DNA of 64,000 bases, from the NCBI GenBank assembly GCA_963729715.1, contig CAVSPA010000004.1:352001-416000 (forward strand). Reading direction: 5' to 3'. This document shows, in pieces, positions 10,097-64,000 of the stretch. This DNA is from an uncultured delta proteobacterium (GTDB lineage: Bacteria; Desulfobacterota; Syntrophia; Syntrophales; UBA2185). Position numbers and translations under genes: made by a program. The notes under the pieces are model-generated. The model was not told where the DNA came from and did no database searches. It was given only the letters and a program-made list of their open reading frames with translations. Position 1 is the stretch's first letter, and the number at the start of each line of letters is the position of its first letter.

Positions 10097-10130
10097 CGGC
10101 TGGCGCCAAAAGGGTACGGGAGACGGAATG

Positions 10131-11775: not shown

Positions 11776-11906
11776 GAATCAAGATTCATGAAGAACAAAC
11801 CCTGGATACCCCGTGCGGAAGCACGGGTTCTTTACGCGCACTCTGTTATTTCGAAAAATCGTGCCCTCTCATAATGATGGACTCCCGTCCATGTCCAGGA
11901 GGAAGA

Positions 11907-12515: not shown

Positions 12516-12531
12516 AAACAAATGGAGGAAT

Positions 12532-12822: not shown

Positions 12823-12912
12823 CAGGCATAGCGGGAGCTGTGCAAGCAATTTAGCTTGATAACAAGTTAAATACACTTCGTACTTCTCGCGTCTTGCCGG
12901 AGATAGATCTGA

Positions 12913-13725: not shown

Positions 13726-13830
13726 CTTCCGCCTCTGTCTGCTCGGTGCCACGCCGCGAGCAATTATTTATGCAAATCTTTGTACTCAGTATGGCTAACA
13801 CTTTTAGTTCTGTAGGGCAGCATACAACAG

Positions 13831-14295
13831 CTATTTCTTATAAACGCCGCACCCGACAAGAAGATTCCCCATCTTTTCGATGTACATGGATTTGGGCTCA
13901 ATTTTTTTGGTTAATGGATTGCCAAACTTATAGTCTTGCCAAAACTCCGATTTTGTCCTTGCGAGTTCCACTCTTTCTTTTACGTAATATTTTCCATCGG
14001 GATCTCTCATGTCGATCAGATCTTTTCCGACCAAAAATTTCGGATTCTGTCCATGGGCTAAACACTTTCCTTTTAAATCATAAACTACGACGTACAAATC
14101 TCTGTCAACAAACTTTCCTTTGAGATTGCTGATTTCGGCGAAGGCTTTTTCCGGCCCTACGGCCTTTATGTAAGCGACCGCTTTCTTAACCATCGCTACC
14201 GCTTCAGCCGGTGTCCCACTCTGGGCTGAATAAGCATTGCCTACAAGACCGAGCAAGAAAATACCGACAATTACTGTCACTGATATCCGCTTCAT
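13831..14295 (-). CDS. Periplasmic single Cache-domain protein
   Basis: Signal peptide; GKFVDRDLYVVV, AHG, DPDGKYYV, K-x-x-PK motifs of sCache_2. Confidence 0.85.
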   Translation of the reverse strand: MKRISVTVIVGIFLLGLVGNAYSAQSGTPAEAVAMVKKAVAYIKAVGPEKAFAEISNLKGKFVDRDLYVVVYDLKGKCLAHGQNPKFLVGKDLIDMRDPDGKYYVKERVELARTKSEFWQDYKFGNPLTKKIEPKSMYIEKMGNLLVGCGVYKK

Positions 14296-14574
14296 TTGTT
14301 CACCTCCTCAATATTTCTTCCCCAACATCCGATTAACCGCCTCATTATCTTTTGCCGTGAGCATTATGATGAATCCGTAGTGAAAAATCAACCCCATCTT
14401 TTATGCTTATCAAGGTAGACAACCTGCAATCCAACTCGCTCAGCCCGTCGCATCATGCTCCTAAATTTGCCGAATTTCACCCTTTTCTCAATGAATATGC
14501 CTTGGTCCCTGATGTTGAATATACTTGACATAAGAGCATCCTTTTTTTATGCTCACGCCGGATCAAGGTCAACG

Positions 14575-14814
14575 ATGAAAACAAACTTGAACGATTACAA
14601 AAAAGAAATGCAGGAACTTGAGACACGTTCTCACAGAATACAGGAGCAAGAGTATTCTGAAGTCAATCACGCACGCGCCGGGAAAAAGGAACTGCGAGTC
14701 ACAGCGCCGCTGTCCATAAAATGGGCCAGATTAATGCCGGGATTGATGGCCATCCTCATGGCCGTTCTCACACTAATCTTTCTCATTATCTCCGAGGTAC
14801 TAAAGAATCACTGA
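14575..14814 (+). CDS. Hypothetical protein with C-terminal transmembrane helix
   Basis: Open frame with a hydrophobic C-terminus; start uncertain. Confidence 0.4.
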   Translation: MKTNLNDYKKEMQELETRSHRIQEQEYSEVNHARAGKKELRVTAPLSIKWARLMPGLMAILMAVLTLIFLIISEVLKNH

Positions 14815-14933
14815 GCAGATATCTCTCCATCTCTACCGTACAGAGAGAATGAATCGCCTCGGTCAACGCACACAGAGAGCCCACCTGTAACTTTGCATTA
14901 AACCCGTTCAAATAAATGCAGTTCGAATCTATG

Positions 14934-15566
14934 TCATTGACACTTCGGAAATGCCTTCAGGGGCGCCGGCTTGCCGTCCGGCACGGCAGTGCGTGTGCCG
15001 TTCATAATCATGGCGAGAAAAGTGTAATAGCCGTTGATGCCGAGCATATCGATGACGCCCTGCTCGCCGAAGCGCTTCAGTGCCCGCTCATAAGTCGCAT
15101 CGGCAACACTCTTGTTAATATGGAGTTCCGTGCAGAAGTCATAAACAATTTGCTCATCCTCATTCATCCCCATGGGATAGCGCCCATCAGCGATCGCTCT
15201 CACAATCTCTGCCGTGATGCCTGATTTGATCGCGATGGGCTCATGGATAGCCCATTCCACCTGCTGCGTCCACTGGCGCGCCGTAATTAGGATGACGAGC
15301 TCGCTCAGTTTGGTCCCGATTGCACTCTTGTAGCGTAGGTATTCCCCCACGCGCTGCGCCCTGTCCATGAGCTCCGGGCTACGAATCAGCGGCACAAACG
15401 GCCCATAAAGAGCGCCGCGGGGACCTTTGACAATCTCCGCTGCGTACTTCTTCTGGAGATCGGTCATCTTTTCAAGCGGCATCGCGGGCATTCTGTCTTG
15501 TGCAAAAACACTGTTCGATTGCATGCCGATAGCAACTACAAAAACGATAAGGCAAAGCCACTCCAT
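14934..15566 (-). CDS. Carboxymuconolactone decarboxylase family protein (exported)
   Basis: GPRGALYGPF...LSELVILITARQW...EWAIH; GGAGG RBS before ATG 15566. Confidence 0.8.
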   Translation of the reverse strand: MEWLCLIVFVVAIGMQSNSVFAQDRMPAMPLEKMTDLQKKYAAEIVKGPRGALYGPFVPLIRSPELMDRAQRVGEYLRYKSAIGTKLSELVILITARQWTQQVEWAIHEPIAIKSGITAEIVRAIADGRYPMGMNEDEQIVYDFCTELHINKSVADATYERALKRFGEQGVIDMLGINGYYTFLAMIMNGTRTAVPDGKPAPLKAFPKCQ

Positions 15567-49519: not shown

Positions 49520-51610
49520 CTAAAAACTGAAAACCTTTCTCCCTCTATATTCTTCTTGTTTCCCCAAATTCCATTGTTTAACGGGTCGCAGATAACCGAC
49601 CACGCGTGAATATATCTCACAGGCTTCCATGCAAATGGGACATGTCTCTTTCTCGCCGCTCAAATAACCGTGCGAGGGACAGACACTGAAGGTGGGTGTA
49701 AACGTAACGTAGGGCAAGTGATACTCGGTACATACTTTGCGCACAAATGCCTTTACAGCTGACGCATCGTTAATTCTTTCTCCTGCATATGTGTGAAAAA
49801 CGGTTCCCCCCGTGTACCTCGCCTGGATTTCATCTTGCAGATCCAGAGCTTCAAATATATCATCCGTAAAGTTCACAGGCAACTGCGTAGAGTTAGTGTA
49901 AAAAGGTTCACCGTTGTCCTCTGCATAAACATCCTCATTAGCACAGATAATGTCTGCATATTTTGCCTTATCGATTTTCGCAAGGCGGTATGAAGTGCCT
50001 TCTGCAGGAGTTGATTCAAGATTATAGTTGTTCCCTGTTTCCTTTTGGAATTCTATAAGCATTTTTCTCATGAAGTCTAATACCTTCAATGTGAATTTCT
50101 GCCCTTCCTCAGAGGTTATACTCTTGCCTAAAAAATTGAGACAGGCTTCATTCATGCCAACAAGACCAATTGTTGAAAAGTGATTTTTCCAATATTCGCC
50201 AAAGCGTTTCTTTATATCCCTCAGGTAATATTTTGTGTACGGATAGAGGTTTCCCTCTGTAAACTTCTCCAGAACTTTTCTCTTGGTCTCCAGACTCTCC
50301 TTGGCAATGATCATGAGTTTTTCGAGACGTTCCATAAATTCGTCTTCTGTCTTAGAGAGGTAACCGATTCTCGGCATATTTATCGTAATCACGCCAATAG
50401 AACCAGTTAAGGGATTTGAGCCGAATAAGCCACCTCCCCTTTTTTCCAATTCCCTGTTATCGATACGAAGTCTGCAGCACATGCTCCTCGCATCTTCCGG
50501 GTTCATGTCTGAGTTTATGAAATTCGAAAAATAGGGCACCCCGTACTTGGCCGTCATTTCCCATAAGTCGTCAAGATTACGATCCTCCCATTTGAATTCC
50601 TTTGTTATGTTATATGTTGGTATGGGAAATGTGAAAACCCTGCCTTTGGCGTCTCCATCAGCCATGACCCGAAGGAAAGCCTTATTGAAGAGATTCATCT
50701 CCTCCTGAAAATCCTTGTATGTCTCTTTCTGCGGTTTGCCTCCGATAATTACATTTTGATCGGCGTAATACTTTGGTACTGTCATATCCAGCGTGACGTT
50801 TGTAAACGGGGTCTGAAAACCTACCCTCGTCGGTACGTTAATATTAAAAATAAATTCCTGCAGAGCTTGCCTTATTTCACTATAACTCAGACGATCGTAC
50901 CTTATAAAAGGAGACAGAAGGGTATCAAAATTTGAGAAAGCCTGAGCACCGGCCGCTTCCCCCTGAAGGGTATAAAAGAAATTAACTACCTGCCCCAAGG
51001 CACTGCGAAGGTGCTTGGCCGGCTTGCTTTCAACCTTACCGGACACTCCCCTGAAGCCTTCCAGAAGAAGATCATATAGATCCCACCCCACACAGTATAC
51101 GGAAAGAAGACTCAAATCGTGGATATGAAAATCACCATCCGAGTGGGCTTTTCTGATTTCCGGCGAATAAATCTCATTCAACCAGTAGACCTTACTGACT
51201 TCGGAAGATATATAGTTATTCAAACCCTGCAAAGAATAATCCATATTGCTGTTCTCATTAATCTTCCAGTCCTTCTTCTTCAGATACTGATCCACCAGAT
51301 CAACCTCCATTTTATTGGTAATTTCTCTTAATCTGGCGTGTTGATCCCTATATATAATATATGCTTTAGCGGTCCGACGATAAGGAGAAGACAAAAGTAC
51401 CTCTTCCACGATGTCCTGGAACTCTTCCACCGTCATAACTTTGTCGTCAAAGAGCTTCTCCGCTAAATTAAGAACCTTTATCGTGAGTTTTCTCGCTGTG
51501 GCGCCATCAAACTCACCCGTTGCGTCTCCAGCCTTCTCAATGGCATTGGTTATCTTTTCTGCGTTGAATTTTACTAACCGGCCATCCCTTTTTCTTATCT
51601 TTTCATGCAT
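49520..51610 (-). CDS. nrdD: Class III anaerobic ribonucleoside-triphosphate reductase with ATP cone
   Basis: ATP cone IRKRDG, RSMCCRL, TPAEG, CxxH..CxxC, YSRVVGYLRPV glycyl-radical motif; start at ATG 51610 with GGAGG RBS. Confidence 0.93.
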   Translation of the reverse strand: MHEKIRKRDGRLVKFNAEKITNAIEKAGDATGEFDGATARKLTIKVLNLAEKLFDDKVMTVEEFQDIVEEVLLSSPYRRTAKAYIIYRDQHARLREITNKMEVDLVDQYLKKKDWKINENSNMDYSLQGLNNYISSEVSKVYWLNEIYSPEIRKAHSDGDFHIHDLSLLSVYCVGWDLYDLLLEGFRGVSGKVESKPAKHLRSALGQVVNFFYTLQGEAAGAQAFSNFDTLLSPFIRYDRLSYSEIRQALQEFIFNINVPTRVGFQTPFTNVTLDMTVPKYYADQNVIIGGKPQKETYKDFQEEMNLFNKAFLRVMADGDAKGRVFTFPIPTYNITKEFKWEDRNLDDLWEMTAKYGVPYFSNFINSDMNPEDARSMCCRLRIDNRELEKRGGGLFGSNPLTGSIGVITINMPRIGYLSKTEDEFMERLEKLMIIAKESLETKRKVLEKFTEGNLYPYTKYYLRDIKKRFGEYWKNHFSTIGLVGMNEACLNFLGKSITSEEGQKFTLKVLDFMRKMLIEFQKETGNNYNLESTPAEGTSYRLAKIDKAKYADIICANEDVYAEDNGEPFYTNSTQLPVNFTDDIFEALDLQDEIQARYTGGTVFHTYAGERINDASAVKAFVRKVCTEYHLPYVTFTPTFSVCPSHGYLSGEKETCPICMEACEIYSRVVGYLRPVKQWNLGKQEEYRGRKVFSF

Positions 51611-51664
51611 AAGATGCCCCTCCTTGGCTCCGCAATGAAAGTCTGGTCTCAGTGCAATCATTCT

Positions 51665-51711
51665 CCCCAATATATTGGGGTAGGACTTAATCATACTACT
51701 ATATATTGATA
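51665..51711. promoter_or_regulatory. Tandem NrdR boxes overlapping the nrdD promoter
   Basis: CCCCAATATATTGGGG (51665-51680) and CTACTATATATTGATA (51696-51711), 31 bp apart; minus-strand TTGATT-17-TATGAT promoter overlaps box 2. Confidence 0.8.
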
Positions 51712-51763
51712 TAATCAAGACAAAAAAAAGGTTTTTTTCTGTTTCATTTCCTCCGTTACTATC

Positions 51764-51804
51764 TGCAAGGAGGTTTGACCAAATTGCAAGAAGGTTTGAC
51801 CAAA
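51764..51804. repeat. Two 20-bp direct repeats TGCAAG(G/A)AGGTTTGACCAAA with a 21-bp period
   Basis: Copies at 51764-51783 and 51785-51804, one mismatch. Confidence 0.85.
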
Positions 51805-52002
51805 AAGAAGTGCAGTAATAACAGCCAAATAGCATATGACACACTAATCCGGCCAGATTTCAATCTTGTTTTAACAGAGAAATCTGCCGGATATATTTTT
51901 TAAATATTAATCGAGCGGGTCATTTATTCTTACGACTTTACCCGCCATTTTTTTCTCCAACTAACTGCAAAAAATGTCCATACTGAGAGCCCGTGATGCG
52001 CC

Positions 52003-52596
52003 TCATGCTATCACCTTCTTTATATCGTTCACTCTCGATTTTAAGAGATATATGATCTGCAAATCCACCGGCCGCACTTCCTCCGTGGCTAAGGTCCTTA
52101 TGGAATCTAGAAGATCAGGGTAACCCTTAAAATCAATAGTGACCTCTGTAATTGCGCCAGGAGCGGCCTTTCCCGGGAGAGACGACTCTTGCTTCGTGAC
52201 CTCTGAATCCTTCCTCTCAAGAGGTTGCTTCGGCTCTTTCTTGGCCCTTGCCATGTCACCCAGGCATTTTGCGCAATAGGGGCTGCGCTCGGACATGGTT
52301 TCTCTCTCGTTACACTTCTTACAGATTTTCTTTATGTCCGCGCCTGGCTTCAGCTGATCCCTCGCCATATCCGCATCCCTTTCGTTAGATCTAATCGGCT
52401 CAGCAGCACGCAGGCGGCCCCTGCTGCTCACTTTGCGGCCAGTAATCCATCCTTCCCTTCCCGCCTGTCCGCAATGCCTGCAGATCAGGCCTGCCTTGCC
52501 AATGCCCGGAACGTAATCTTCTTCTACGTGTTTCGATCCACATTTCCCACAGGCAATGGCCATAGTTAAAGAGTCCCATCCGCACGTCTTGAGCAT
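52003..52596 (-). CDS. Hypothetical protein with four CxxC pairs
   Basis: CGKC, CRHC, CKKC, CAKC; GAGGAG RBS. Confidence 0.6.
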   Translation of the reverse strand: MLKTCGWDSLTMAIACGKCGSKHVEEDYVPGIGKAGLICRHCGQAGREGWITGRKVSSRGRLRAAEPIRSNERDADMARDQLKPGADIKKICKKCNERETMSERSPYCAKCLGDMARAKKEPKQPLERKDSEVTKQESSLPGKAAPGAITEVTIDFKGYPDLLDSIRTLATEEVRPVDLQIIYLLKSRVNDIKKVIA

Positions 52597-52715
52597 TGCT
52601 CCTCAGTGCTAGATTGGAGTCTCCACATCTTTCAGAGTGCGGCTGTATAGCTCCTCATATGGGATGAACTCCAACCTAGCTGCCGGAAGGAGCGGCTATA
52701 AGGTCTATTAATCAA

Positions 52716-54230
52716 CTATGAATAGAACTTGTCATAAGCAGCTGCTATGGCATGTGCCGGTGGACTCTTCTTATAATCCGCGACAGCCGTCGCATCGTTC
52801 TGCTCGGCGATGGCCTGCTTAATCGCGTTGAAATCAATATCGACTCCCGTGAAATTTGTTACGGCAATGAAGATTTTGCGGGCTGTATCCTTGTCGATCC
52901 ACTCCTGGTTCTCGGCAGTCATGAGTGCCGTGGCAACAGACTGTACCAGGGTTCCGAGTTTGCCGACGTCCTTTGTCTCCATTTGAGGCGTCAGGATGGA
53001 GTAATTATCTGCGTCTTCATTAGACACGTTGATATATCGGGTCAGCCGGGATTGTCTGATCTGATATTTGAACATGTCTTCGAGTATGTACTTCACCTCG
53101 AGCTGCTTCGTGCCGAGCATCTTTAGCGCCGGCGCTGCCATTTCCTCCGCCGTGGCGCGGTTCACGTCTCCACCGCCGCCATACCAGTGCTCCGGATATC
53201 CAAAACGTCCCATGATGTGGTTACGGAAGATCCTGGCGCCCGTCTCCGCATCTATTGCCTGCAGTTTTGGGCTTTCTGCCGTGAGTGTGACTTTTTCATT
53301 GTGTCCGAACACCGATCCAGATTTTTTCGTGAACGCTTCGAGGTGTTTTTTAATCTCCTTCTCGTCTGCGCCCTGTACCTGGAGGTCCCAGATGAAACTA
53401 TTGAGGAGCGGCCACATGTCCGCATAATCAAAAAGGTACTGTTCATAGGCGTCAAGCCAGTCGGCTACGAACAGAAGGGATGATCTCCCTCGAGGAGAAT
53501 TTGATACGTTGTTAATGGACCAATAGAAACAATCGCCGTCTGTGAACTGGTCTCGGAGTTGCTTTGCTACTGGAGAAAGGACATAGTCGGCTTCTTCGGG
53601 AAGGATCGTCCGGTAATTTTTTGCCTCCGTCGAGACGTTGAATCCTGCTATCTCTCCGATCCATCCCTTTGTCTGCACGCCGATGGGAACTTTTACGTTC
53701 TCCGGGTCCGTCATCACACCCTTGATCTGCGCGGGATCTATATAACCGAGCCGTACTCTCCCGGTCTGTGCCGCCACAAATGTGGGGAAACACAACTCGC
53801 CGAATGTGTGGAGCTCGCCCACGTGTTTCGGGAAATAAAGAGGCAACCTGTTTATCGGGTCATTCCAGAAACCATCGAGCACCGTCTTAATGTCGGGATT
53901 TTTCGCCTCGTAAGGGAGCCCCTCGGCGAGAATAAAAGCCGTGGTGATATCGATAAGCCATCCGGCAAGCGGATTCGTCTCCCGCAGCCAGTAGGCGATC
54001 TCGATCATGCGGTCCTGGAGGACAGGCACGAGATCTCGATTCGGAGTCGTGGTAAGACGCCGCCAGACGGTACCGTCCGGATCGGCGACCGGTGCCATCA
54101 GGGTATCTGAGTAAGAGGCTGCTTTGATCTCCGCGACCTGCTTGTCTACTGCGGCCTGCATCTTCTGGTCGACTCTGCGTTGGATCTCGCCGCTGAACAT
54201 CTTCTCGCGCAGTTTAGTTAAAATGCTCAT
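52716..54230 (-). CDS. Phage portal protein-like
   Basis: 504 aa; NPLAGWLID...ILAEG, GRVRLGYIDP, PRGRSSL, GYPEHWYG.GGDVNRATA resemble portal proteins; GGAGG RBS; next to the capsid gene. Confidence 0.65.
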   Translation of the reverse strand: MSILTKLREKMFSGEIQRRVDQKMQAAVDKQVAEIKAASYSDTLMAPVADPDGTVWRRLTTTPNRDLVPVLQDRMIEIAYWLRETNPLAGWLIDITTAFILAEGLPYEAKNPDIKTVLDGFWNDPINRLPLYFPKHVGELHTFGELCFPTFVAAQTGRVRLGYIDPAQIKGVMTDPENVKVPIGVQTKGWIGEIAGFNVSTEAKNYRTILPEEADYVLSPVAKQLRDQFTDGDCFYWSINNVSNSPRGRSSLLFVADWLDAYEQYLFDYADMWPLLNSFIWDLQVQGADEKEIKKHLEAFTKKSGSVFGHNEKVTLTAESPKLQAIDAETGARIFRNHIMGRFGYPEHWYGGGGDVNRATAEEMAAPALKMLGTKQLEVKYILEDMFKYQIRQSRLTRYINVSNEDADNYSILTPQMETKDVGKLGTLVQSVATALMTAENQEWIDKDTARKIFIAVTNFTGVDIDFNAIKQAIAEQNDATAVADYKKSPPAHAIAAAYDKFYS

Positions 54231-54310
54231 GCCATCCTCCCATTTTTTTTCTTAAGGTCATCGCATAAAATACTGTTCATCATTCAACGAATCCTATTGC
54301 ATAGATATTA

Positions 54311-55474
54311 TCAGGGAACGATGGCCTTATAACCGCCATTAGGATCGATGATGCTGCCTCCATAAGTGTGAATGCATTTGTATGCATAATAATCCGCCTT
54401 CCAAGCAAGATCGCTCTCGGTCGAGTAGATAAACACGGGCTCCTCATTGCCGTCCAAATATGACATTTCGATAATGGGAACCTCGTGCGGATCACGCAAA
54501 ACCCCCCAGTCATTTGGGTCAGTCATGAATGGACATGTGATGATTCTTTCGTTATTTTCGCCAAAAAGTTCACAGCAGGGATTTGTAACCTTGGTCGTAA
54601 GATCATTGCCCGTGAAAGTATATTCATTCTGATTCACCTTCACGGCGGTATCCCACATATTCGCTGGGACAACTAGAGACCAATTCAACGATGCGAGGTC
54701 GAACTCGATCTTCTCGCCTGAGCCCGGCTCCGTCATGCCTGCAAGAGCAGTAATTGCTGCCGTGAGAGGCGCTATATCGAGTGCAGTACTCCCAAGATTT
54801 CCGTGAGGGCTGGTGAACCATGCGTTGCCATCCATGCAGCTGCTATTGCCTATGAAGAAATTCCATACAAATTTGGCATGAGTTCTGCGGGCTGCGCGGC
54901 CGATTTTATCCAGCATCTGCTTTATTATTCCGATGTGGTCATTCACAAAGACCCTTCGGGATATCATAAGCAGCCCGCCGCGCTGTTTGCTATCGTACTG
55001 CACCTCTGTATCTTTGACGATATTTAATTGAGGCCAATCAGTCGTTTCTGGATCCACGATATCAAGGTCATTAAAATAATCATACTGAACAGCGTGGACG
55101 GTGCGGAAGTCCTTGACCGGCCTTTTTAGAGATATCAAAGCTTCCTCTCGATATGTGAATTGTCTATAGACATTTGAAAGATATAACGACAACACATCCT
55201 GGAGAGCATACGTAAAAGTAGCCGTATTGAAACTTGCTCTCAGAGTTACCGGCAAATTGTCAGGGAAAAAGAGGCCCATAAATTTGTTGTCTCCGGTAAA
55301 ATGCAGATAAGCCTCTCTGATTCCCCGGAATGCGGGCACTCCCTTGCTGTCATAATTGGGCAAAAAGAGTTTGGCGAACGCTGCCCGGCTCTTATCCACT
55401 TCATTCTCTCCCACCTCGATCATATTTCCAGTTATCGATCGTTCAATGTCCTTTAATAATTTTAATCTGTTCAT
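54311..55474 (-). CDS. Major capsid protein (Mu gpT-like, HK97 fold)
   Basis: VKDFRT, GGLLMISRRVFVNDHIG...IGRAARRT, DGNAWFTSPHGNL, LVVP, YLDGNEEP motifs. Confidence 0.75.
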   Translation of the reverse strand: MNRLKLLKDIERSITGNMIEVGENEVDKSRAAFAKLFLPNYDSKGVPAFRGIREAYLHFTGDNKFMGLFFPDNLPVTLRASFNTATFTYALQDVLSLYLSNVYRQFTYREEALISLKRPVKDFRTVHAVQYDYFNDLDIVDPETTDWPQLNIVKDTEVQYDSKQRGGLLMISRRVFVNDHIGIIKQMLDKIGRAARRTHAKFVWNFFIGNSSCMDGNAWFTSPHGNLGSTALDIAPLTAAITALAGMTEPGSGEKIEFDLASLNWSLVVPANMWDTAVKVNQNEYTFTGNDLTTKVTNPCCELFGENNERIITCPFMTDPNDWGVLRDPHEVPIIEMSYLDGNEEPVFIYSTESDLAWKADYYAYKCIHTYGGSIIDPNGGYKAIVP

Positions 55475-55540
55475 CGCTCTCGCTCCTTTTTTATTTTTTT
55501 ATTCGACTATTGTGAAGGAATGCTGCGTTGCCCATGTCCC

Positions 55541-55639
55541 TTACCTTCCGATCTGTCGCCTGTGTAATTCATCCAGTTTGTTGGATATTTTTTTTGTGAA
55601 GTCATTCATCGTCCGCGCATCTCCGATTACGTTGCCCAT
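55541..55639 (-). CDS. Unannotated 32-aa ORF resembling the tape-measure C-terminus
   Basis: MGNVIGDARTMNDFTKKISNKLDELHRRQIGR starts 1 nt after the tape-measure stop. Confidence 0.4.
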   Translation of the reverse strand: MGNVIGDARTMNDFTKKISNKLDELHRRQIGR

Positions 55640-55640
55640 C

Positions 55641-58043
55641 TCAGTGGCCCCACTGTTCAAGTTTCTTCGTATATGGATAAATTAGGGTCGCAATATCTTT
55701 TGCGGCCTGTTTTTCCTGAATGACCGTTCCGTGATAGTGGATGTGGATAGCCGATCCACTGCCCTTGTCATAGGCTGCCGTCTGCGCCCTATTAAGCACA
55801 CGTTCACCGCTCTGCAAAATTGCCGGGAACTCATCCGGCGCGAGTCCGGAATGCAGCCGAGGAGCGCCTGCGAAGGCCACGGATGGCATCATCCGCGTGG
55901 GTGCATAGTCCGAGCCGACGACGCCGCCAGAATGAAAGAGAGAGCTAACCGCATCCCAGGCGGAACTGACAGCATTCGTCACTCCACCTACGACAGTGCT
56001 TCCGGCGCTCTTCAGGAAATCCATGCCGTGACCGCCCGTTAGTGAATCAGCGAGTAGCAGCGCCTGCGAAACACCCGTGGGATCAGGATCCTCTCCTAGT
56101 GCAGACAGTTCTCCCACGTCCCACATTGCCTGAATGTCTCCGGTGTCGGCCAGTTGAGTCAGCGACTCAAGACTTGCATCTGCGTTGGGGCCGCTACTCC
56201 CAAAGAGACCGCTTAGACTCCCCAGAAGTCCGGATCCCGTCAGTCCCATGTTACCGGCCTGACTCGCGGTCGACCCGCCACTGCCTCCCATGCCCGGCAG
56301 ACTTATGCCCATCATTTCTGCGGCCTGGAATGTGGCCCACTGCACCGCCATCTGAGCAACGACATCGGTAAACTTCTTCAGCATCGCATCGGTGAACGTG
56401 GTCCAGTAAGTGCTGAAACCCTGCAACTGGCCTTTCCATCCATCGAAAAGGACCGTGCTCAAGGTACTTGAGGCGTTCGACGAGAACGCCGTGACACCAT
56501 CGGTCATGGCCTTTCCGGTTGTCATCCAGCTCGCCTGCATTTGATAAAGCCCCTGACGCCAACCGCCGACGAAAGTGTCATTGTATTCCTGGATCATGTC
56601 CTTGAGCCGGTTAATTTCGTCGTCCTCGACGATCTTTCCCGTGAGCATCTCGTATTGTGCGATATCGTCAATGGCAGCCGTCTGCGCCGCGAACTTCTGG
56701 TCCTGGACGTCCATATAATTCTGAGCGTTCTTCACAGCCATGTCCTGGAGCCACTCATAATGAGTCAATGCGAGTTGTTGCTGCTTCGCGTAATAGTCTG
56801 CAGTGGCCAGGTTCTTTTGTCTCTCAAGGTCATTCTTCTTAGCGGCGACGTCTGCGTCCAGAGCCTCAATCTTCGCGGCCACCACTGTGGCATCGGAGAC
56901 TTTCTGTCGGTCCATGTCTGTCCTGGCCGCCGCCTCTTTACTGAACATGTCGACCTGATCATCATAGTACTCATCGAGGAGCGCCTCTCTTTCCGAGATG
57001 CTCTCCACTGCGATCGCATAGGTGCTCTGCTGATAGACTTGCGACAAAGCGGCGTTGTATTTGATCCTCGACTCTTCGTCATCGAAATAAGCCTTATTGG
57101 TTGCCTTGAGAGATTCGATGGCGAGTTTCTGGGCCTCGACCGCGCCGAGTCGCGCCAGGGCGTCGGCGGTCAATGCCTTGGCCAGGGTCGTCGCTTCAGT
57201 GATATTCCAGAGTTTCTGAGCTTCAGCAGTAAGTCTAATTTGTTCATTGAAGTTCTCCGTCGTTTTTGTCGCATCGTTGAGATCCTCACCAACCACCATC
57301 AGGTTGGCTATAAAGTCTACAAGGCACATACCGGCTGTTTCCTTCAGCTCAGTGAGTCGGGCCTTGAAGCCCTGCACCTTCTCGGCCATGTTCTCAGTTT
57401 CCACCCCAAATTGCGCACTCTGCGTCGCCGCATTGGCCATCACTATGTCATAGAGATTGATGTCGGTTATGCCAGCCGACAGCGCCTGCTGGACGATCAT
57501 CATCTGATCTTTCGTGACGAGGCCATATTGCCTGAGCGACCGTGGCATCTGCGTGGAGAGGGCATCGGTGATTGTTTCATAGGCAGTCTGAACGTCTTGC
57601 CCCGTCACACGGGCCGAGACTCTCGCAGTCTCCATGATGTCTGTCAGTTGGTCCGCCGAGAATCCAAGTACCATTCCCTTGACGGCTTTCTGCATTATCG
57701 ATGTTTCATCAACAGTTCCAGCTGAGGCACGCTTCATGGAGCTGAGGAGCTGGTCAGCACTTACGTTTGCAGACTCCGCCACGATGCCGAAGGAATCTGC
57801 TGCCTGGAGCGCCTTTGCGCCCATCTCCGACCACTGAATGGTCTTTTCCATAGTGACCCAGGCGGCGGCGACCCCGGCAGTCATCTGGACCCACTTGTTA
57901 CTGAAGAAACTCATCGAGTCAGACGAAGATGCGGCCGACTGGCTCACCTGCCCCATCGACTGCTTCACATTATCGACAAACTGCTGGACGACAGCAGTGC
58001 CTTTATCGTCGACGGAGATTTCGATTTTCAGTTGACTGGCCAT
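55641..58043 (-). CDS. Tail tape measure-like protein
   Basis: 800 aa, Ala-rich and helical; lambda-type C-terminal region GGWRQGL and FHSGGVVG...AGAPRLHSGLAPDEFPAILQSGERVL. Confidence 0.78.
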   Translation of the reverse strand: MASQLKIEISVDDKGTAVVQQFVDNVKQSMGQVSQSAASSSDSMSFFSNKWVQMTAGVAAAWVTMEKTIQWSEMGAKALQAADSFGIVAESANVSADQLLSSMKRASAGTVDETSIMQKAVKGMVLGFSADQLTDIMETARVSARVTGQDVQTAYETITDALSTQMPRSLRQYGLVTKDQMMIVQQALSAGITDINLYDIVMANAATQSAQFGVETENMAEKVQGFKARLTELKETAGMCLVDFIANLMVVGEDLNDATKTTENFNEQIRLTAEAQKLWNITEATTLAKALTADALARLGAVEAQKLAIESLKATNKAYFDDEESRIKYNAALSQVYQQSTYAIAVESISEREALLDEYYDDQVDMFSKEAAARTDMDRQKVSDATVVAAKIEALDADVAAKKNDLERQKNLATADYYAKQQQLALTHYEWLQDMAVKNAQNYMDVQDQKFAAQTAAIDDIAQYEMLTGKIVEDDEINRLKDMIQEYNDTFVGGWRQGLYQMQASWMTTGKAMTDGVTAFSSNASSTLSTVLFDGWKGQLQGFSTYWTTFTDAMLKKFTDVVAQMAVQWATFQAAEMMGISLPGMGGSGGSTASQAGNMGLTGSGLLGSLSGLFGSSGPNADASLESLTQLADTGDIQAMWDVGELSALGEDPDPTGVSQALLLADSLTGGHGMDFLKSAGSTVVGGVTNAVSSAWDAVSSLFHSGGVVGSDYAPTRMMPSVAFAGAPRLHSGLAPDEFPAILQSGERVLNRAQTAAYDKGSGSAIHIHYHGTVIQEKQAAKDIATLIYPYTKKLEQWGH

Positions 58044-58073
58044 GATTCTATTCCTCTACAGTAATAAGATTTT

Positions 58074-58334
58074 TTAATGCAGTGTCATACTTTCATTTCG
58101 AACCGCGCCGGTCGCCTCATGCGGCTTCCGACGACTCTCCCGCCTTTGATGTATCTGCTTGCCAATGGCAACAAGAGCATCCTGCAGGCTGAAAGACCCG
58201 CTTTTGATTAGAAGCATTAAGGTGATTTCAAATTCACGCTGCGACATGACCTGCGCAGCCTTTTTGCAATATTTGGTGACAACAACAGTTCCTTTATCGT
58301 CGATGGTTGCTCTTATTTTTATTTTTCCGAACAT
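58074..58334 (-). CDS. 86-aa protein whose N-terminus resembles the tape-measure N-terminus
   Basis: IKIRATIDDKGTVVV versus LKIEISVDDKGTAVV. Confidence 0.55.
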   Translation of the reverse strand: MFGKIKIRATIDDKGTVVVTKYCKKAAQVMSQREFEITLMLLIKSGSFSLQDALVAIGKQIHQRRESRRKPHEATGAVRNESMTLH

Positions 58335-58371
58335 GTCGCTTCACTCGTCCCGGATCGCAGTCTTTAATATT

Positions 58372-58403
58372 AAAAAAGGGGCCGCGCCGATCTGCACAAC
58401 CCC
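58372..58403 (-). terminator. Intrinsic terminator between the early and structural modules
   Basis: Minus strand GGGGTTGTGC-AGATCG-GCGCGGCCCC (with G-U pairs) followed by TTTTTT. Confidence 0.7.
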
Positions 58404-58494
58404 CTCATGGTTGCCCTCATTATGTTTGCCCTGGCAGGGCGGTGAGGGTATCCGCCTTTTCGGTAGCTGGCCTAGCCAGGACGCCCTTTATCCT

Positions 58495-58974
58495 TCAACC
58501 CGCAGCTGATGCTGCGGTGGAAGTCTTCTCCTTCTTCCCGGTGATCTCCTTTGCCAAAGCTTCAAACCGGTTTGTTAAGTCGATGATAGGCATCGCCATA
58601 TTGTGCCTGAGTTCCAAAAGCTCCTGCAGCTTCGCATTGATAACGAGCAGGTCCTCTGGCCGCTTGTGCGGACTGAGAAATTTATACGTGTCTTCGTATT
58701 CGTCCACGATGAAACTTGTAATTGCTTCACGATCATTAATATCAAAAAAAGGCATGCACATTATCTCGATTGCTTGCGCGTAATCCTGGATTATATAACC
58801 CAGTTCCTCGCCGAAACGTGCCAGGCCTTCACCTGCGTCGTTGCCCCTTCCGGCCTTGCAACAGAGTGTCACGAGCGTATCTCCAAGGGCATTCAATTTT
58901 CTCGCATAATGTGTAACGTCCTCAACGGCACCTTCGTCGCTTCTAAACGGCTGTCTTTTTTCTTCCCTCTCCAT
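58495..58974 (-). CDS. Hypothetical protein
   Basis: 159-aa ORF with GGAGG RBS in the early operon. Confidence 0.65.
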   Translation of the reverse strand: MEREEKRQPFRSDEGAVEDVTHYARKLNALGDTLVTLCCKAGRGNDAGEGLARFGEELGYIIQDYAQAIEIMCMPFFDINDREAITSFIVDEYEDTYKFLSPHKRPEDLLVINAKLQELLELRHNMAMPIIDLTNRFEALAKEITGKKEKTSTAASAAG

Positions 58975-58986
58975 AACGCACCTCCC

Positions 58987-59466
58987 TCATGATTTCTGGT
59001 GGCCCTCCTCAACGGCCCTGCCTATTGATTCTTTGATCACCATGTGTTTCAAGGCTAAAATTATTTTGATCCCCTCTTCTTTAGTTCCCGGTTTCACCTT
59101 GCCGATGATTTTTTTCGAGAAGCCCATAAGCCTTTTCGGATTGTCCTGCCAGCCGAGTTTTTCCTCCATATATCTGATAAAATTCGTCTGCTCCGGCGTT
59201 ATAATTTCGAGTACATTCTTCGGGAGATCCCGCGCCGGTTTCCTCACCTTTTTGATCTTTGCCCCTGCCTCAGCGAACTTCTTAACCACTTCGTGAACGT
59301 CGTCCAGCATGAGCTCCTTGATCGAATCCTTTCCAGTACACCCCTTCACCATTTCATGAAGTCCGTCATCATCCAGGCCCAGCTGCCGGGCTAAGGCCCA
59401 GATCATTCTGATCTGCTTCTCTGAAATCACGGCAATCCCTCTCTTGCCTGCCGACATTTCCCTCAT
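58987..59466 (-). CDS. Mu gp16/GemA (DUF1018) family regulatory protein
   Basis: QIRMIWALARQLGLDDD....TGKDSIKEL; C-terminal IILALKHM. Confidence 0.75.
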   Translation of the reverse strand: MREMSAGKRGIAVISEKQIRMIWALARQLGLDDDGLHEMVKGCTGKDSIKELMLDDVHEVVKKFAEAGAKIKKVRKPARDLPKNVLEIITPEQTNFIRYMEEKLGWQDNPKRLMGFSKKIIGKVKPGTKEEGIKIILALKHMVIKESIGRAVEEGHQKS

Positions 59467-59795
59467 TCACCTCCCTCCGCCTTTAATATCTTTAGAAGCC
59501 GCACATAGAAGGCATCACACGCCTTCCGCAGTTTCTTCTCATCAATCGGCTGTATGCGCTTGATGAACCGTGGTCGCACATTCCTACCTGTCTGGCCTAT
59601 TCTGTGAGTAGAACTTCTTTTGAGGCCGGTTAGCCGTGCCAGGACATCGCAACCAACTCCCCTCTGGGCAAGAATGTGGATCAAAGCGTCGCGTTCCGCC
59701 CGATAAGGATTGTCCTTTTTGAGGGTCTCTAATTGCCGTGGCGTCAGTTCATTTAAGAGCTTCTTATACTCTGATGGATATCTTTTCCCGCCCAT
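59463..59795 (-). CDS. Small HTH protein, Mor/C activator-like
   Basis: ERDALI...GVGCDVLARLTGLKRSSTHRI resembles the Mor C-terminal HTH; adjacent to gemA. Confidence 0.45.
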   Translation of the reverse strand: MGGKRYPSEYKKLLNELTPRQLETLKKDNPYRAERDALIHILAQRGVGCDVLARLTGLKRSSTHRIGQTGRNVRPRFIKRIQPIDEKKLRKACDAFYVRLLKILKAEGGE

Positions 59796-59818
59796 GCCAA
59801 AGCCACCTCTTAAAGCAT

Positions 59819-60784
59819 CTACATCTGGTTGATCTCGCGCAGCAGTTCGAGCGTGACCTGTCTATTTTCGGCCACGGCGACCCGAAGCGTTTTTTTCAAG
59901 AGTTTGACCATTGAACGGAGCCGACCCACGCTATTAGCCTTGTACAGCAAGAATTCGAGAGCCTTCCGCTCAATCCCTCCGGGAATGATACTATCAACCA
60001 ACATGGAAACGTCCGTTGTCGTAACATCACGCTTGATATGGCATCTGACGCCGATCCTGGAGAGAATCTGGTCAAATAAAACAGCTCTGCGGCCGCCCCG
60101 CATCTGTTGATACAAACTTTCCTGACCCATCAATACAACTCCAATCCCTGTAGCATCATATATTCGTCTCACCGCCTCAATGCTTTCCCAAGAAAGAAAA
60201 TGTGCTTCATCGAGAATCAAAAGTCGGCGGCTGCCGGATAAGCGGTCAATGATGCGCTGCATGAAGACATGGCTCGTCGCGTCATACCGAGAGACGCCGG
60301 GTAGCCCCTGAGAAATCAACAGCAGTGTGGACCCGGGCGCTCGCGTCGTTATATCTGCAGTCCTGAGAAGCGTATCCGGATGGTTTCTCTTGTAATGCCG
60401 CCCTACCTCTGTTTTCCCGCTTCCTGCCGGTGCGACGACAACCCCCATATCGCCGTCTTCATGACAGCATTTCAGGACACCCAATATCTGCTTCGCGGTG
60501 TCGGTGAGGCAGAAGCCAGAGGATACAAAAGCAACTCCATTGCGTTCTTCGCGGTCGAGAAACATTGCGACGGATCTTTCTAATCCGGTGTAATCGTACC
60601 CAGCCTCCCCTTTACGATATGCCTCCAGCAGTGTCGGCGAGATAGAATTTTTAGCGGCAAAACCCTGCCCCGTCATGTCAGTATAGTCCACGTATTTCTG
60701 AATGCGTTCCTGTAAAGTCGGAGCACTCATGCTTTGCACGGTCTCTTTAGTCTTCCTTGAAATTTGTTTCAGAGTTGCCTGCAT
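59819..60784 (-). CDS. MuB-like AAA+ transposition ATPase
   Basis: APAGSGKT Walker A, LLILDEAH Walker B, GIGVVLMG, SRIG; follows the transposase. Confidence 0.9.
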   Translation of the reverse strand: MQATLKQISRKTKETVQSMSAPTLQERIQKYVDYTDMTGQGFAAKNSISPTLLEAYRKGEAGYDYTGLERSVAMFLDREERNGVAFVSSGFCLTDTAKQILGVLKCCHEDGDMGVVVAPAGSGKTEVGRHYKRNHPDTLLRTADITTRAPGSTLLLISQGLPGVSRYDATSHVFMQRIIDRLSGSRRLLILDEAHFLSWESIEAVRRIYDATGIGVVLMGQESLYQQMRGGRRAVLFDQILSRIGVRCHIKRDVTTTDVSMLVDSIIPGGIERKALEFLLYKANSVGRLRSMVKLLKKTLRVAVAENRQVTLELLREINQM

Positions 60785-60793
60785 GTTCTCCCC

Positions 60794-62722
60794 CTAAAAA
60801 TCCTCAGGATCATCGTTATATTGTAAAGTCCTCACAGAGCCCATCGCCATTGAACTGGCGCGAAGGTAGCGGTCTAAAATATCCGGCCGCGAGGTAGCAT
60901 TTGCAGTATTTTCCTCAGCCTTATCCGCCTCAAGTGCTTTTGCGGAATCCCGGGCGAGCTTCTCTTTTTTGTGAAATTGTTTGACGTTTGAATCAGCCGG
61001 TTGAATATCGCGCTGGCGAACTTTTTCCTGGTCTTCGATTTGCATCGCCAGCAGCAGCGGATCATCGATGACATCTTCTGCCTCAATAATTTGCTTGCGA
61101 AAATTTTTGATCTTCCTGCGTATCCTGGCAGCGTCCTTAACACTTTGGAGGGTAATTTCTGATCGGTAGTGTGATGGCGTTTCGAGCTTCGCGGCGCAGA
61201 AAACGGCTCCCTTGTAAATGATGGCAGCTCTCGTGATATCGCGTGGATCCCGCCGCACTTCTACCCGCTCTCCTGACAATTTGAAGAGATTGTCGTCCCG
61301 ATACAGGAGGCCCTTTATGGCCACTGACGAATCACGGACGGTCGCCGCATTGACGTCCATCAAGAGAAAATCGAGCAAGTGCTGCGAGGGGATCACTGCC
61401 TGATGATTTTCCCAGAATGAAACAGGAGGTCGCCCGGTTGTGCAATGGGGCAGAGAATTTCTCTCTATTATAAGTTCGTCGACTTTTTTTGAGATTTCTT
61501 CAAAGGTCAGAAGCTTACCGGATTTGATTTCATGATGCAGTTTTTTGGGCCTTGTTTTTATGCTGTGGCCGCGATATCCCGGCCAATCCTTCATCCGGTC
61601 CGTAAACCAGCCAAAATTCGACTCGATCAATTTTTCTCTCGCATTGTAGGGGGCAGCAAAGAATGTTTCAATTCCCAGTTCGACGAGGACGCCGGCAACA
61701 TGATGCGCTCTGTAGTCTCTGCCCAAGTCGATGTAAAATGTCTTGCACGGACCACATTGACTTATCGCATATATGACGGCCTGACCTATGACCAAGGCAT
61801 TCGGCGTCGCTACAAGGATCCACCCAACAAATTTACGGCTCTTCGCCTCCAGAATCGCTACGAGCCAGGGGAACACTGCTTTGCCGCGATAAAGGCAGCA
61901 CACGTCCATCTGTTTACTGTCTCCTACCCAGACCTCATTTAATGAGCATTCATCCCAGTCTCTACGGATGTATGGCGAATATAAACGATCCCACTCCTGC
62001 TTATTACGAACCAAAAGTTGCTGCGCATCTGTCCATTTGCGATCTATATAATCTGCCACTGTACGATAACTCGGGCATCGATATTTGCCATCAAAAGCTT
62101 TGCGAAGGTCCCCGTGGACCTTCCTTACTGGTGGCCCGAGGGGCTGCAAATAGGCATTCTCGATAAATGCTGCCATCTCTCTATTGATGACAGGCTGCTT
62201 CTCTCCATTCCGCCAAGCCGGAACCAGCGCAGGATAACCGCCGCTCTGATAGCCAGTCACGTATCTATCAAGGCTTTTATGACCAATGTTGTGAGACTTC
62301 GCGAATCTCCTTTTTACTTCTGTCAATTTTCTTCCCGGCACATCAGCTCGTATCTTCAACCACTCTCTGGCGAGCGCCATTCGTTTATCAGCTTCTTCGC
62401 GCTGCCAGGGTTTGAGATCAACGTATGTCGCTTTTCTTTCATCGTTTTTTTTAACCGGTGCACCACCTGGATCTGGCTTTGACATGTCTGTTCTTTTTTC
62501 AATGATGGCCATCCGTGCCTCTGCGGGGAGAGACTCAATACCGTATTCCCGCCCACCGCCCTTCCCTTCTCGTTTCCGTGACTGCCAACGTTCCTTCTTT
62601 GCCTTTCTGAGGATAGCACTCTCGGTTGATGGTACACCCGGCAACTCTATCCCTGCCAACTCACGGGCCGTGAAGAAATTCTTCTTCTCTGCAGCATCAA
62701 CTCCGATCTGGTTCATCGGCAA
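60794..62722 (-). CDS. MuA-like DDE transposase
   Basis: N-terminal Mu DNA-binding domain (FTARELAG..LPG...GKGGGREY..SLP); D-D-E candidates WVGD, YIDLG, LIES; C-terminal VRRDPRD. Confidence 0.92.
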   Translation of the reverse strand: MPMNQIGVDAAEKKNFFTARELAGIELPGVPSTESAILRKAKKERWQSRKREGKGGGREYGIESLPAEARMAIIEKRTDMSKPDPGGAPVKKNDERKATYVDLKPWQREEADKRMALAREWLKIRADVPGRKLTEVKRRFAKSHNIGHKSLDRYVTGYQSGGYPALVPAWRNGEKQPVINREMAAFIENAYLQPLGPPVRKVHGDLRKAFDGKYRCPSYRTVADYIDRKWTDAQQLLVRNKQEWDRLYSPYIRRDWDECSLNEVWVGDSKQMDVCCLYRGKAVFPWLVAILEAKSRKFVGWILVATPNALVIGQAVIYAISQCGPCKTFYIDLGRDYRAHHVAGVLVELGIETFFAAPYNAREKLIESNFGWFTDRMKDWPGYRGHSIKTRPKKLHHEIKSGKLLTFEEISKKVDELIIERNSLPHCTTGRPPVSFWENHQAVIPSQHLLDFLLMDVNAATVRDSSVAIKGLLYRDDNLFKLSGERVEVRRDPRDITRAAIIYKGAVFCAAKLETPSHYRSEITLQSVKDAARIRRKIKNFRKQIIEAEDVIDDPLLLAMQIEDQEKVRQRDIQPADSNVKQFHKKEKLARDSAKALEADKAEENTANATSRPDILDRYLRASSMAMGSVRTLQYNDDPEDF

Positions 62723-63074
62723 CTTCTCCAGAATTTATTTTATTGCATTCACGCATCTTTTTGATACGATGCTCTGTAAATTCCTTATTACGATAACGTA
62801 GAGATATCCTGGCGGGCTCGTGATCCTTGTTGTAACGATGGGGCCACAGAACCCAGGGCGGAACGCCTAACTGCTCTGCGATGATCTTTTCGTATTTTGG
62901 GCAGGGCTGATGTTTGACGTGAACAAAGTTGGTCCTGTTCACGTTATGGATTCCCGCGAGTGCACTGAGCGTTATACCCTTAAGCTCAAGGCCGTGTTTT
63001 ATAGTAGCCCAGATTGCGAATTCATCATCCGTGCAGCTGATTGATTCTGTTTCTCTTTGGTTGCTTTGCATCAT
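62697..63074 (-). CDS. ner: Ner/Nlp-family HTH regulator
   Basis: IKHGLELKGITLSALA...EKIIAEQLGVPPWVLWPHRY. Confidence 0.85.
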   Translation of the reverse strand: MMQSNQRETESISCTDDEFAIWATIKHGLELKGITLSALAGIHNVNRTNFVHVKHQPCPKYEKIIAEQLGVPPWVLWPHRYNKDHEPARISLRYRNKEFTEHRIKKMRECNKINSGEVADEPDRS

Positions 63075-63082
63075 GATGGTTA

Positions 63083-63125
63083 TTTATAAGGAAAATAGAG
63101 CGAATTGTCAAGAAAATAAAGCGAA
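63083..63125 (-). promoter_or_regulatory. Early promoter with paired operator-like repeats
   Basis: Minus-strand TTGACA (63111-63106)-17-TATAAA (63088-63083); repeats GAAAATA(G/A)AGCGAA at 63091-63104 and 63112-63125. Confidence 0.65.
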
Positions 63126-63157
63126 GTAAGAAAAAAAACACTATGATTGGCTAACTT

Positions 63158-63694
63158 ATGGAGAATTTTAGGAAAAGATTACGCATCGCTATAGATAATG
63201 AGTCCGTAAATGCGTTTGCGGACAGATCGAGGGTGGCTGAGAGTGTTCTTAGAAAATATTTATTGGGTCCAACCGTGCCAGGCATGGAGAACCTTGTCTC
63301 TATTGCCAGGGCTGCAGGAGTGAACATCAAATGGCTCGCCACAGGAGAGGGGCCGAAAACCGGAATGGAAATAAATATTGACCTTCTAGTTTTTTTGCTG
63401 GCAGCCTGTGCGGAATATGAAAGGGCACTGAATGTACCCCTTTCTTACGCCGAAAAGGCCTTTCTAATAAGCGCGATTTATAATAGATGGTGGCAAGATG
63501 GTGTTGAAGTAATTGGCCTTGGAGAATTTATTAAGGCAGATATCGAAGCGTTGCACCTATCAATGAAGAACGAGGAACTGTTGCGCTATCGTTTGAGTCA
63601 GTTATGGGACAGGGAATACGCGGATGCCATAATGGAAATGAGATCTCGCTCGAAATGTTTGAGAGGTGCGCTTAAAAAGAAAAAAAAGAAGTAA
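63158..63694 (+). CDS. XRE/cI-like repressor, divergent from ner
   Basis: FRKRL...AFADRSRVAESVLRKYL....PGMENLVSIARAAGVNIKWLATGEG; no S24 peptidase domain recognisable. Confidence 0.82.
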   Translation: MENFRKRLRIAIDNESVNAFADRSRVAESVLRKYLLGPTVPGMENLVSIARAAGVNIKWLATGEGPKTGMEINIDLLVFLLAACAEYERALNVPLSYAEKAFLISAIYNRWWQDGVEVIGLGEFIKADIEALHLSMKNEELLRYRLSQLWDREYADAIMEMRSRSKCLRGALKKKKKK

Positions 63695-63845
63695 GGCCAT
63701 AAAAGAGTTGTTTGTGGACTGTGTTACTGGGCATTTCCGATACATTTTTCACACTGGGGAAGAACGCGCTCCCCGTGATCGTTCTTAGAAGAGCGCCGCC
63801 GGGGCATTGAGGATAACGTTGTGCTTTCTGGGGAGAGTTTTAAAA

Positions 63846-64000
63846 ATGGGCCGCATATTATTTGGAGTGTTTTTCTTGTTGGTTGGTTCTTGTAATGCCT
63901 TGCAGGCATTCGGAGATCGAAATTTGAACGCCGCCGTGGGAGGCGGGTTTATCGCGCTCGTTTTAATAGTAGGCGGTGTAGCACTGCTCATCTCTGGCTT
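63846..64000 (+). CDS. Partial membrane protein (runs off the window end)
   Basis: GGGGAG RBS; MGRILFGVFFLLVGSCNALQAFGDRNLNAAVGGGFIALVLIVGGVALLISG... Confidence 0.55.
   Translation, partial: MGRILFGVFFLLVGSCNALQAFGDRNLNAAVGGGFIALVLIVGGVALLISG

Follow-up and report, generated by a model that had tools for sequence, protein, structure and literature searches.

What is a Mu-type transposition module doing beside only a few recognisable virion genes, just upstream of a bacterial nrdD promoter? The locus lies in a 64,000-nucleotide stretch of an uncultured delta proteobacterium of the Syntrophales (GenBank assembly GCA_963729715.1, contig CAVSPA010000004.1, positions 352,001 to 416,000), hereafter the window. 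An earlier sequence-only reading had proposed that about 12 kb at the end of the window is a streamlined parasite that replicates by transposition and supplies head and tail-length components to a helper phage. We find that the element is real, intact and recently inserted, and that it belongs to a family that appears to be undescribed; we consider it likely to be a phage satellite that depends on a helper and uses Mu-type transposition both to integrate and to replicate. The proposal of a streamlined transposing parasite is supported by the lack of a terminase past the window, the reversed gene order and a family under selection; dependence on a helper is the part that we infer.

The element is 12,868 bp long (window 51757..64624, ending 624 bp beyond the window) and was inserted as one unit. 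Both Mu-type ends were found, the 5-bp target duplication TCCGT flanks the element, and the two flanks are contiguous in all nine loci obtained when ten same-genus genomes were searched for the empty site. The termini, TACTA...TAGTA, match at 20/26 bases between the ends. Mu-like phages have 5'-TG...CA-3' termini; this copy begins with 5'-TA, not TG, at both ends, and its relatives have either TG or TA. The far end has two transposase-site repeats side by side and the repressor end has two with a gap between them, which we take to be the arrangement of Mu attR and attL. Past position 64000 there is only the remainder of one gene for a 113-residue membrane protein, the element end and then host genes; no terminase or tail gene was found there. 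The far end, previously placed at 51740, maps to 51757, where it leaves the nrdD promoter intact as the sequence-only reading had described. Five GTCAGAGTT repeats lie near the repressor end, 260-400 bases past the window end (L001:3260-3401); two of them form a 15-bp perfect inverted pair, and the repeats are candidate operators or a candidate packaging site. Promoter and terminator counts across the element showed no excess over shuffled sequence.

A public contig of 12,924 bp carries the MuB and Cys-rich protein of this element. Its length is exactly that predicted for a de Bruijn assembly with k=31, a value we assumed, in which occupied and empty alleles are present together. This exact agreement suggests that the insertion is recent and polymorphic, though the sequencing run behind the contig may be the source sample. 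Four low-share DNA sequencing runs gave scattered, short, low-depth contig fragments with no joints, and no RNA run was listed.

The element and its borders comprise the following features, in window coordinates.

51665..51711, minus strand: host nrdD promoter region, intact, with two NrdR-type boxes (51696-51711, 51665-51680)
51752..51756, plus strand: TCCGT, left copy of the 5-bp target-site duplication
51757..51804, plus strand: far end, Mu attR-like, with 5'-TA terminus and two adjacent 20-bp transposase-site repeats (51764-51783, 51785-51804)
52003..52596, minus strand: Cys-rich protein with a C-terminal ribbon-helix-helix-like region, a family gene in 29/53 loci
52716..54230, minus strand: portal, 504 residues (PHROG 10963)
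54311..55474, minus strand: short major capsid protein, 387 residues, HK97 fold (PF25209, fold matches)
55641..58043, minus strand: tape-measure-like protein, 800 residues (identity to phage genes at the tape-measure position)
58074..58334, minus strand: 86-residue open reading frame (ORF), N-terminus resembling tape-measure N-termini by eye
58375..58482, minus strand: int-alpA RNA (58414-58482), then two loop-complementary repeats and an intrinsic terminator (58375-58406)
58495..58974, minus strand: 159-residue helical protein, a family gene (15/53 loci)
58987..59466, minus strand: GemA-like protein (PF06252, E 1.7e-12)
59463..59795, minus strand: 110-residue helix-turn-helix protein, a family gene (22/53 loci)
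59819..60784, minus strand: MuB-type AAA+ ATPase with an N-terminal extension (Pfam/PHROG)
60794..62722, minus strand: MuA-type DDE transposase, 642 residues (PHROG 310, E 7e-100)
62697..63074, minus strand: Ner-like regulator (HTH_35)
63158..63694, plus strand: repressor (Pfam/PHROG scans)
63807..64000, plus strand, continuing to 148 bases past the window: 113-residue membrane protein with a zinc ribbon
64260-64624, past the window: repressor end, Mu attL-like, with a terminal site, a spacer, a second transposase site near 64507-64518 and an inverted site near 64407
64625-64629, past the window: TCCGT, right copy of the target duplication

All ORFs named before, from the repressor/ner switch to the Cys-rich ORF, are present and uninterrupted. 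Scans of 12 element ORFs with Pfam and PHROG models support the repressor, Ner-like protein, MuA, MuB, GemA, capsid and portal. The acidic triad of MuA (D268/D332/E367) is present, in agreement with the DDE candidates suggested earlier, and the Walker A and Walker B motifs of MuB are intact. The supposed mor-like gene did not hold up: the 110-residue protein had no Mor match in hidden Markov model (HMM), atlas or fold searches and is simply a small helix-turn-helix protein. A homolog search with the 86-residue ORF found none. The 800-residue protein shares 33-45% identity, across 190-460 residues, with the genes that occupy the tape-measure position in full-size phages, and family members match tape-measure PHROGs, but the protein itself has no HMM match of its own class in the Pfam/PHROG scans. 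The role of the Cys-rich protein is probably regulatory (atlas leads all under 0.9). The order tape measure-capsid-portal is, as had been noticed, the reverse of that in related full-size phages, which carry the normal order. The listed nrdD ORF (window 49520-51844) has its start at 51844, inside the element; this is an artefact, and the likely start is an ATG near 51610.

The absence of terminase, protease, tail and lysis genes, first noted within the window, extends to the whole element and to the rest of the host assembly, whose 19 contigs set the scope of these absences. Thirteen queries taken from the full-size phages (TerL, TerS, endolysin, sheath/tube, adaptor, neck, terminator and protease region) had no match in the assembly. 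No integrase was found among 13 ORFs scanned; scans of this element likewise found no primase-replicase, AlpA/Stl regulator, Psu/Delta/Sid or TerS, and its annotated ORFs include no family match to TniQ/TnsD or a Cas effector. With Mu-like phages the element shares intact MuA and MuB, ends with repeated sites and the 5-bp duplication, and it lacks their TG...CA termini and full head, packaging, tail and lysis modules. As in satellites, genes essential for a particle are absent and the element is conserved in that state.

A set of genes like this could be an ordinary Mu-like prophage, or several, decayed by large internal deletions: its core genes are homologous to genes of full-size Mu-like phages, Mu ends persist through internal deletions, and one public contig carries this element's MuB and tape measure in broken form, perhaps through decay or sequencing error. 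Relatives bear directly on this reading. A capsid search gave 131 proteins, and about 100 of the 120 listed have at most 422 residues, some being fragments; many capsids of 520-580 residues were also seen. Used as a single query against viral contigs the capsid had no match, and loci were collected by scans with an 86-row capsid alignment. They are of two kinds, one with short capsids and the other with proteins of 700-900 residues that contain the capsid as their C-terminal 350-390 residues. Loci of the second, full-size kind have the order TerL-portal-gpF-small gene-capsid-neck-tape measure, with MuA/MuB where the locus extends far enough.

We mapped 14 complete elements with both ends and a perfect 5-bp duplication, 7,998-13,632 bp in size; for L120, L121, L187 and L270 the second-ranked end pair was taken for its terminal repeats. 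No convincing pair was found at L024, L113, L117, L137, L186 or L188, and the MuA matches G055, G207 and G214, two of them at contig edges, were left out of end mapping. Only two pairs of the 14 share at least 1 kb of DNA at 85% identity. Queries for TerL, the protease region, sheath/tube, adaptor and endolysin had no match in any of them; TerS occurs in one (L269) and a neck gene in one. The short capsid is present in 11 of the 14, of which four carry a tape measure (two before and two after the capsid) and one a portal. Thus the family expected from the sequence-only reading exists at different insertion sites, with at least 14 complete elements bearing perfect duplications, but the exact trio of tape measure, capsid and portal is not its core (portal 1/11, tape measure 4/11). 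Among 53 short-capsid loci, which we selected and which include some redundant and many short contigs, an HExxH gene resembling ImmA/IrrE follows the capsid in 39/53 (weak HMM matches), the small pre-capsid gene is present in 32/53, MuA in 27/53 and a portal in 2/53. The element studied here has neither the ImmA/IrrE-like gene nor the small pre-capsid gene. Single virion genes in other family members include neck, gpF, TerS and four tape-measure clusters, placed on either side of the capsid. Part of the family comes from IMG/VR contigs, a source that does not imply a virion origin. Relatives of the capsid (84%), MuB (79%) and portal (83%) each have a longest contig of 9,985 bp, probably one and the same sister element.

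The short capsid corresponds to the capsid moiety of the 700-900-residue fused protease-capsid of full-size phages, with 35-46% identity to fused capsids and about 35% to capsids of the phage group that donated the portal (below). In a 114-row tree, 42/43 short capsids form one clade (Shimodaira-Hasegawa-like approximate likelihood ratio test, SH-aLRT, 99), sister to 58 longer capsids; the one outside is from an acidobacterial locus. A 48-row bootstrap tree places 20/20 short capsids together (support 100/99). The MuAs of mini elements interleave with those of four full-size phages. One capsid clade on interleaved MuAs indicates that the capsid cassette was inherited as a unit and moved between transposition modules. 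The ratio of non-synonymous to synonymous substitution rates (dN/dS; Nei-Gojobori, pairs with dS 0.03-1.5, phylogenetically non-independent) has a median of 0.12 for the capsid (30 pairs from 50 sequences), which is purifying selection, and 0.21 for MuA (4 pairs). A lone occurrence with relaxed selection, which had been named as a sign of an ordinary or decayed prophage, is not what we see.

Because the capsid tree and dN/dS contradict independent deletions, which would not yield a single capsid clade sister to the phages, we regard decay as very improbable. It would explain why the small pre-capsid gene keeps the phage order in most of the 32/53 loci having it; the reversed and variable order of the other genes, the purifying selection, a recently gained portal and an RNA absent from the phages all speak against it.

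The portal is 93.7% identical over 491 residues to the portal of viral contig L281, where it sits between TerL and gpF (TerS-TerL-portal-gpF-capsid), and the DNA match is limited to window 52771-54240, that is, the portal gene; L281 is 6.8 kb, and the comparison covers the immediate neighbours of the portal. A 37,178-bp contig on record carries an identical portal. Portal dN/dS is 0.044; 49 synonymous changes and 13 non-synonymous ones were assigned to the branch of this element. Just one other mini element has a portal, and that gene arose separately. Because of its high identity to the portal of a terminase-bearing phage, the gene is, judged from these comparisons, a single-gene cassette captured from such a phage and not a relic. 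Tape measure and portal are optional cargo of the family.

Upstream of the structural genes lies an RNA that matches int-alpA (Rfam RF02996) with 58.2 bits (gathering threshold 35.8) over model positions 1-71 of 71. A model built from 27 copies of the RNA matches 30/39 mini loci, eight of them outside the training set, and 0/42 full-size phage loci, which cover the phage genomes in part. Two repeats further downstream can pair with the hairpin loop by complementarity, and the second of them lies within the terminator arm. The longest match between loop and first repeat averages 5.52, against 4.48 for shuffled partners (0/2000 as high), and that between loop and second repeat 5.22 against 4.73 (4/2000 as high), statistics that ignore kinship among loci. 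The region is a putative attenuator of the structural cassette. In phage P4, the CI RNA pairs with seqC and causes premature termination (PMC4825925). P4 CI RNA/seqC control resembles the arrangement of int-alpA, loop-complementary repeats and terminator, and by this analogy the two may be linked. The main text of PMC5737381 does not mention int-alpA.

Under the satellite reading, the element would remain repressed at a safe spot immediately before a host promoter and on induction would copy itself by transposition. Read-through of the int-alpA attenuator would then release the structural cassette, and the short capsid would build heads, or bias them, toward a small genome. A Mu-like phage of 33-43 kb with a fused protease-capsid would superinfect and supply the protease, terminase, tail and lysis functions. 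The captured portal of this copy may match the terminase of the helper and its tape measure may set or divert tail assembly, and the target mark for this lineage would be the NrdR-box promoter, read via bound NrdR or via the DNA itself. A fuller version, which in our judgment could equally well be right or wrong, is a class of replicative-transposition satellites that have an ancient capsid lineage of their own and a P4-CI-like attenuator, have captured single helper genes repeatedly (portal, tape measure, neck, TerS), home to repressor-bound promoters in a lineage-specific way (here by MuB reading NrdR-occupied boxes) and are packaged by the headful from the repressor end, carrying the nrd operon along.

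Several points weigh against the satellite reading. No helper is resident in this assembly, in which the co-resident complete phage with related structural proteins that had been envisaged was not found, and four genomes with a short capsid (339 searched) have no fused-capsid match. At only 35-46% identity to fused capsids, co-assembly of the short capsid with helper parts is not obvious, and most of the family carries neither portal nor TerS nor tape measure. A packaging site was not found; the genome holds a single copy, a search with 13 element proteins finding no further one; and no tape-measure pair fell within the dS range. Particles, induction, expression and transfer are predicted from the genes.

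The same facts invite a different reading, in which the element is a site-selective Mu-type transposon that spreads by transformation, conjugative replicons or generalized transduction, its virion genes serving as dominant-negative decoys against related phages. The cargo of single virion genes in varying order, the three complete relatives without any capsid, the lack of a resident helper and the ImmA/IrrE-like gene after the capsid (39/53 loci, weak HMM matches) fit such a role. A decoy should, however, track its target phage closely, yet the capsid is only 35-46% identical to phage capsids; the capsid clade is old, full-length and well folded, and the cassette lies behind a terminator and not at a constitutive cargo position. 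Interference and self-packaging are, moreover, often combined in satellites (PMC13492144). We think the decoy reading unlikely.

The capsid could also be a host-domesticated shell, encapsulin-like or gene-transfer-agent-like, riding on a transposon. It is a protease-less HK97-fold protein whose AlphaFold model (mean predicted local distance difference test score, pLDDT, 88) has encapsulins among its fold matches. The best matches are phage capsids, and a portal and tape measure would be senseless for an encapsulin. The short capsid is also patchy and mobile, occurring in 4/339 genomes of the class, with empty sites in close relatives. Domestication is hardly credible on this evidence.

Why did the element insert at this promoter? 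The host genome encodes NrdR, and the distal NrdR-type box begins 46 bp from the element end. Using a matrix trained on 18 boxes from nine empty promoters (cut-off 12.8 bits within 100 bp of the end), we found an NrdR-type box beside 11/26 elements with a mapped end, a count in which L125 repeats L106, the score of this element is circular and insertion sites are phylogenetically non-independent. Eight of the 11 have nrdD or nrdJ as flank gene and one has smc, and in two the flank gene is off the contig; the far end faces the flank gene in nine and the repressor end does so in two. Members of one MuA subclade (98/95) are all at nrd promoters (6/6), and two elements found blind by MuA search also sit at nrd. 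None of three elements found blind by a wider MuA profile is at an NrdR box. Two of these precede the -35 box of one promoter by 16 and 27 bp, 11 bp apart, and the gene behind it is presumably mraZ; the third is before a tRNA-Phe promoter. In another MuA clade, one mini element and one full-size prophage each start about 20 bp past tRNA-Leu(CAA). We conclude that the target, as judged from these loci, follows the transposition (MuA/MuB) lineage. Insertions of a full-size Mu-like prophage and of mini elements shortly after the 3' ends of tRNA-Leu(CAA) or tRNA-Glu were also seen at L252:166-290, L134:8287-8398, L137:8330-8521 and L112:3512-3784.

Such a pattern could be survivor bias, with random insertions persisting only in harmless intergenic spots, and the members at other promoters or beside tRNA genes, including the three blind finds, would suit it. 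In this genome no more than about 0.15% of the non-coding positions are within 100 bp of an NrdR-type box, against 11/26 elements; the sites comprise both orientations, nrdD and nrdJ, and different duplications; and two separate insertions fell 11 bp apart at one other promoter. Survivor bias is thus quite improbable. When MuA and MuB were compared in sliding windows, no region set the NrdR-site elements apart, and these elements do not group together on the MuB tree (6 changes, 153/500 shuffles as low). The Cys-rich protein was considered as target selector and rejected, two elements at NrdR-type boxes (L248, L024) having no Cys gene. NrdR acts as a multimer at paired boxes (10.1101/2025.03.28.645925), which makes the bound multimer a plausible landmark for insertion. 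For Mu itself, target choice is described as indiscriminate, with active promoter regions disfavoured (PMC7350765).

With Mu-like phages (Mu and the 33-43-kb fused protease-capsid phages of Syntrophia/Desulfobacterota) the element has in common the repressor/Ner switch, MuA, MuB, GemA, the end architecture and the 5-bp duplication, as well as homologous capsid, portal and tape measure. Unlike them, it is one third of the size, has no TerL, protease, tail or lysis genes, ends in 5'-TA and shows strong site choice. Satellites of the P4-like, PICI, cf-PICI, PLE and PICMI families are also about 8-14 kb, repressed in the chromosome and equipped with partial sets of virion genes, but these, like EPIP, use a site-specific integrase, which the element does not have. 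The primase-replicase, AlpA/Stl, and Psu/Delta/Sid or TerS of P4-like, PICI and cf-PICI satellites are likewise missing, TerS being found only in the relative L269. A cf-PICI encodes capsid plus portal, protease and both terminase subunits, whereas the element has capsid and portal only. Engineered mini-Mu consists of Mu ends plus A and B and is packaged by helper Mu; the element, by comparison, occurs naturally and has a capsid lineage, an RNA switch and a site choice of its own.

Satellite families described in the available passages are integrase-based (PMC10085698; PMC11389934). The EPIP satellites of Mycolicibacterium resemble the element in being small, with a tape measure and a listed major capsid and without tail and holin genes, and differ in having a serine integrase, TerS, adaptor and stopper as core and no transposase (PMC12822802). 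CasMu-I/V are Mu transposases guided by CRISPR; they and the Tn7 family combine a DDE transposase with an AAA+ ATPase and insert at a roughly fixed distance from a recognised site, as the element does (PMC10910872). The element, unlike these, has no TniQ/TnsD or Cas gene among its annotated ORFs and carries virion genes. We found neither a transposase-based satellite nor NrdR-box targeting in the literature searched (titles, abstracts and passages, with subscription journals mostly uncovered), and the available part of PMC13492144 mentions no such element. Conditional on satellite function, the element would be categorically new relative to that literature.

Satellite finders rely on the integrase as a core marker and would overlook a class based on a transposase or record it as broken prophages. 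If the satellite reading is true, Mu-like phages have a natural parasite, and a compact natural system is at hand for how a capsid protein alone could redirect a helper. A Mu-type transposase lineage that homes to a regulatory site of its host with neither TniQ nor CRISPR offers a new and testable way of selecting targets. Few mobile elements or genetic tools are known for the syntrophic anaerobes that serve as hosts.

Some further loci depart from the common plan. The three complete capsid-less relatives are L269:5037-13715 (G143), L270:7408-15405 (G237) and L275:7421-16074 (G656). The first has a Mu gp27-type TerS (E 9e-39), and the others encode short proteins like protease/scaffold parts of Mu gpI (weak Pfam matches or by eye) and a coiled-coil gene; these are possibly other ways of redirecting a helper. 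G237 holds its capsid-less mini element together with a full-size prophage, whose ends are tentative. At L032 (about 5000-15000) a mini element has a 530-residue capsid that groups with fused phage capsids, a tape measure, the Cys gene and the int-alpA RNA, a possible second origin of the satellite plan. L042 (Acidobacteriota) has an independent 393-residue capsid beside an oppositely oriented MuA and a 1006-residue gene, without the int-alpA RNA. The far-end repeat unit is tandemly duplicated in the G466 element (L274:13380-13453), and a second repressor/MuA module or MuA fragment directly follows the Cys gene at L117:5421-9543 and L186:9070-9738, as tandem or nested elements.

A full-size Mu-like prophage in G116 (L252:11500-15600) contains an Avd gene and, by eye, a reverse-transcriptase-like ORF, a probable diversity-generating retroelement; host contigs C3, C4, C5 and C12 (G000) carry at least seven copies of a gene matching that ORF, probably group II introns. 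In Ktedonobacteria (L051, L056, L057, L079 and many others) a long fused capsid with a nearby portal is very widespread and could be a domesticated gene-transfer-agent-like cluster.

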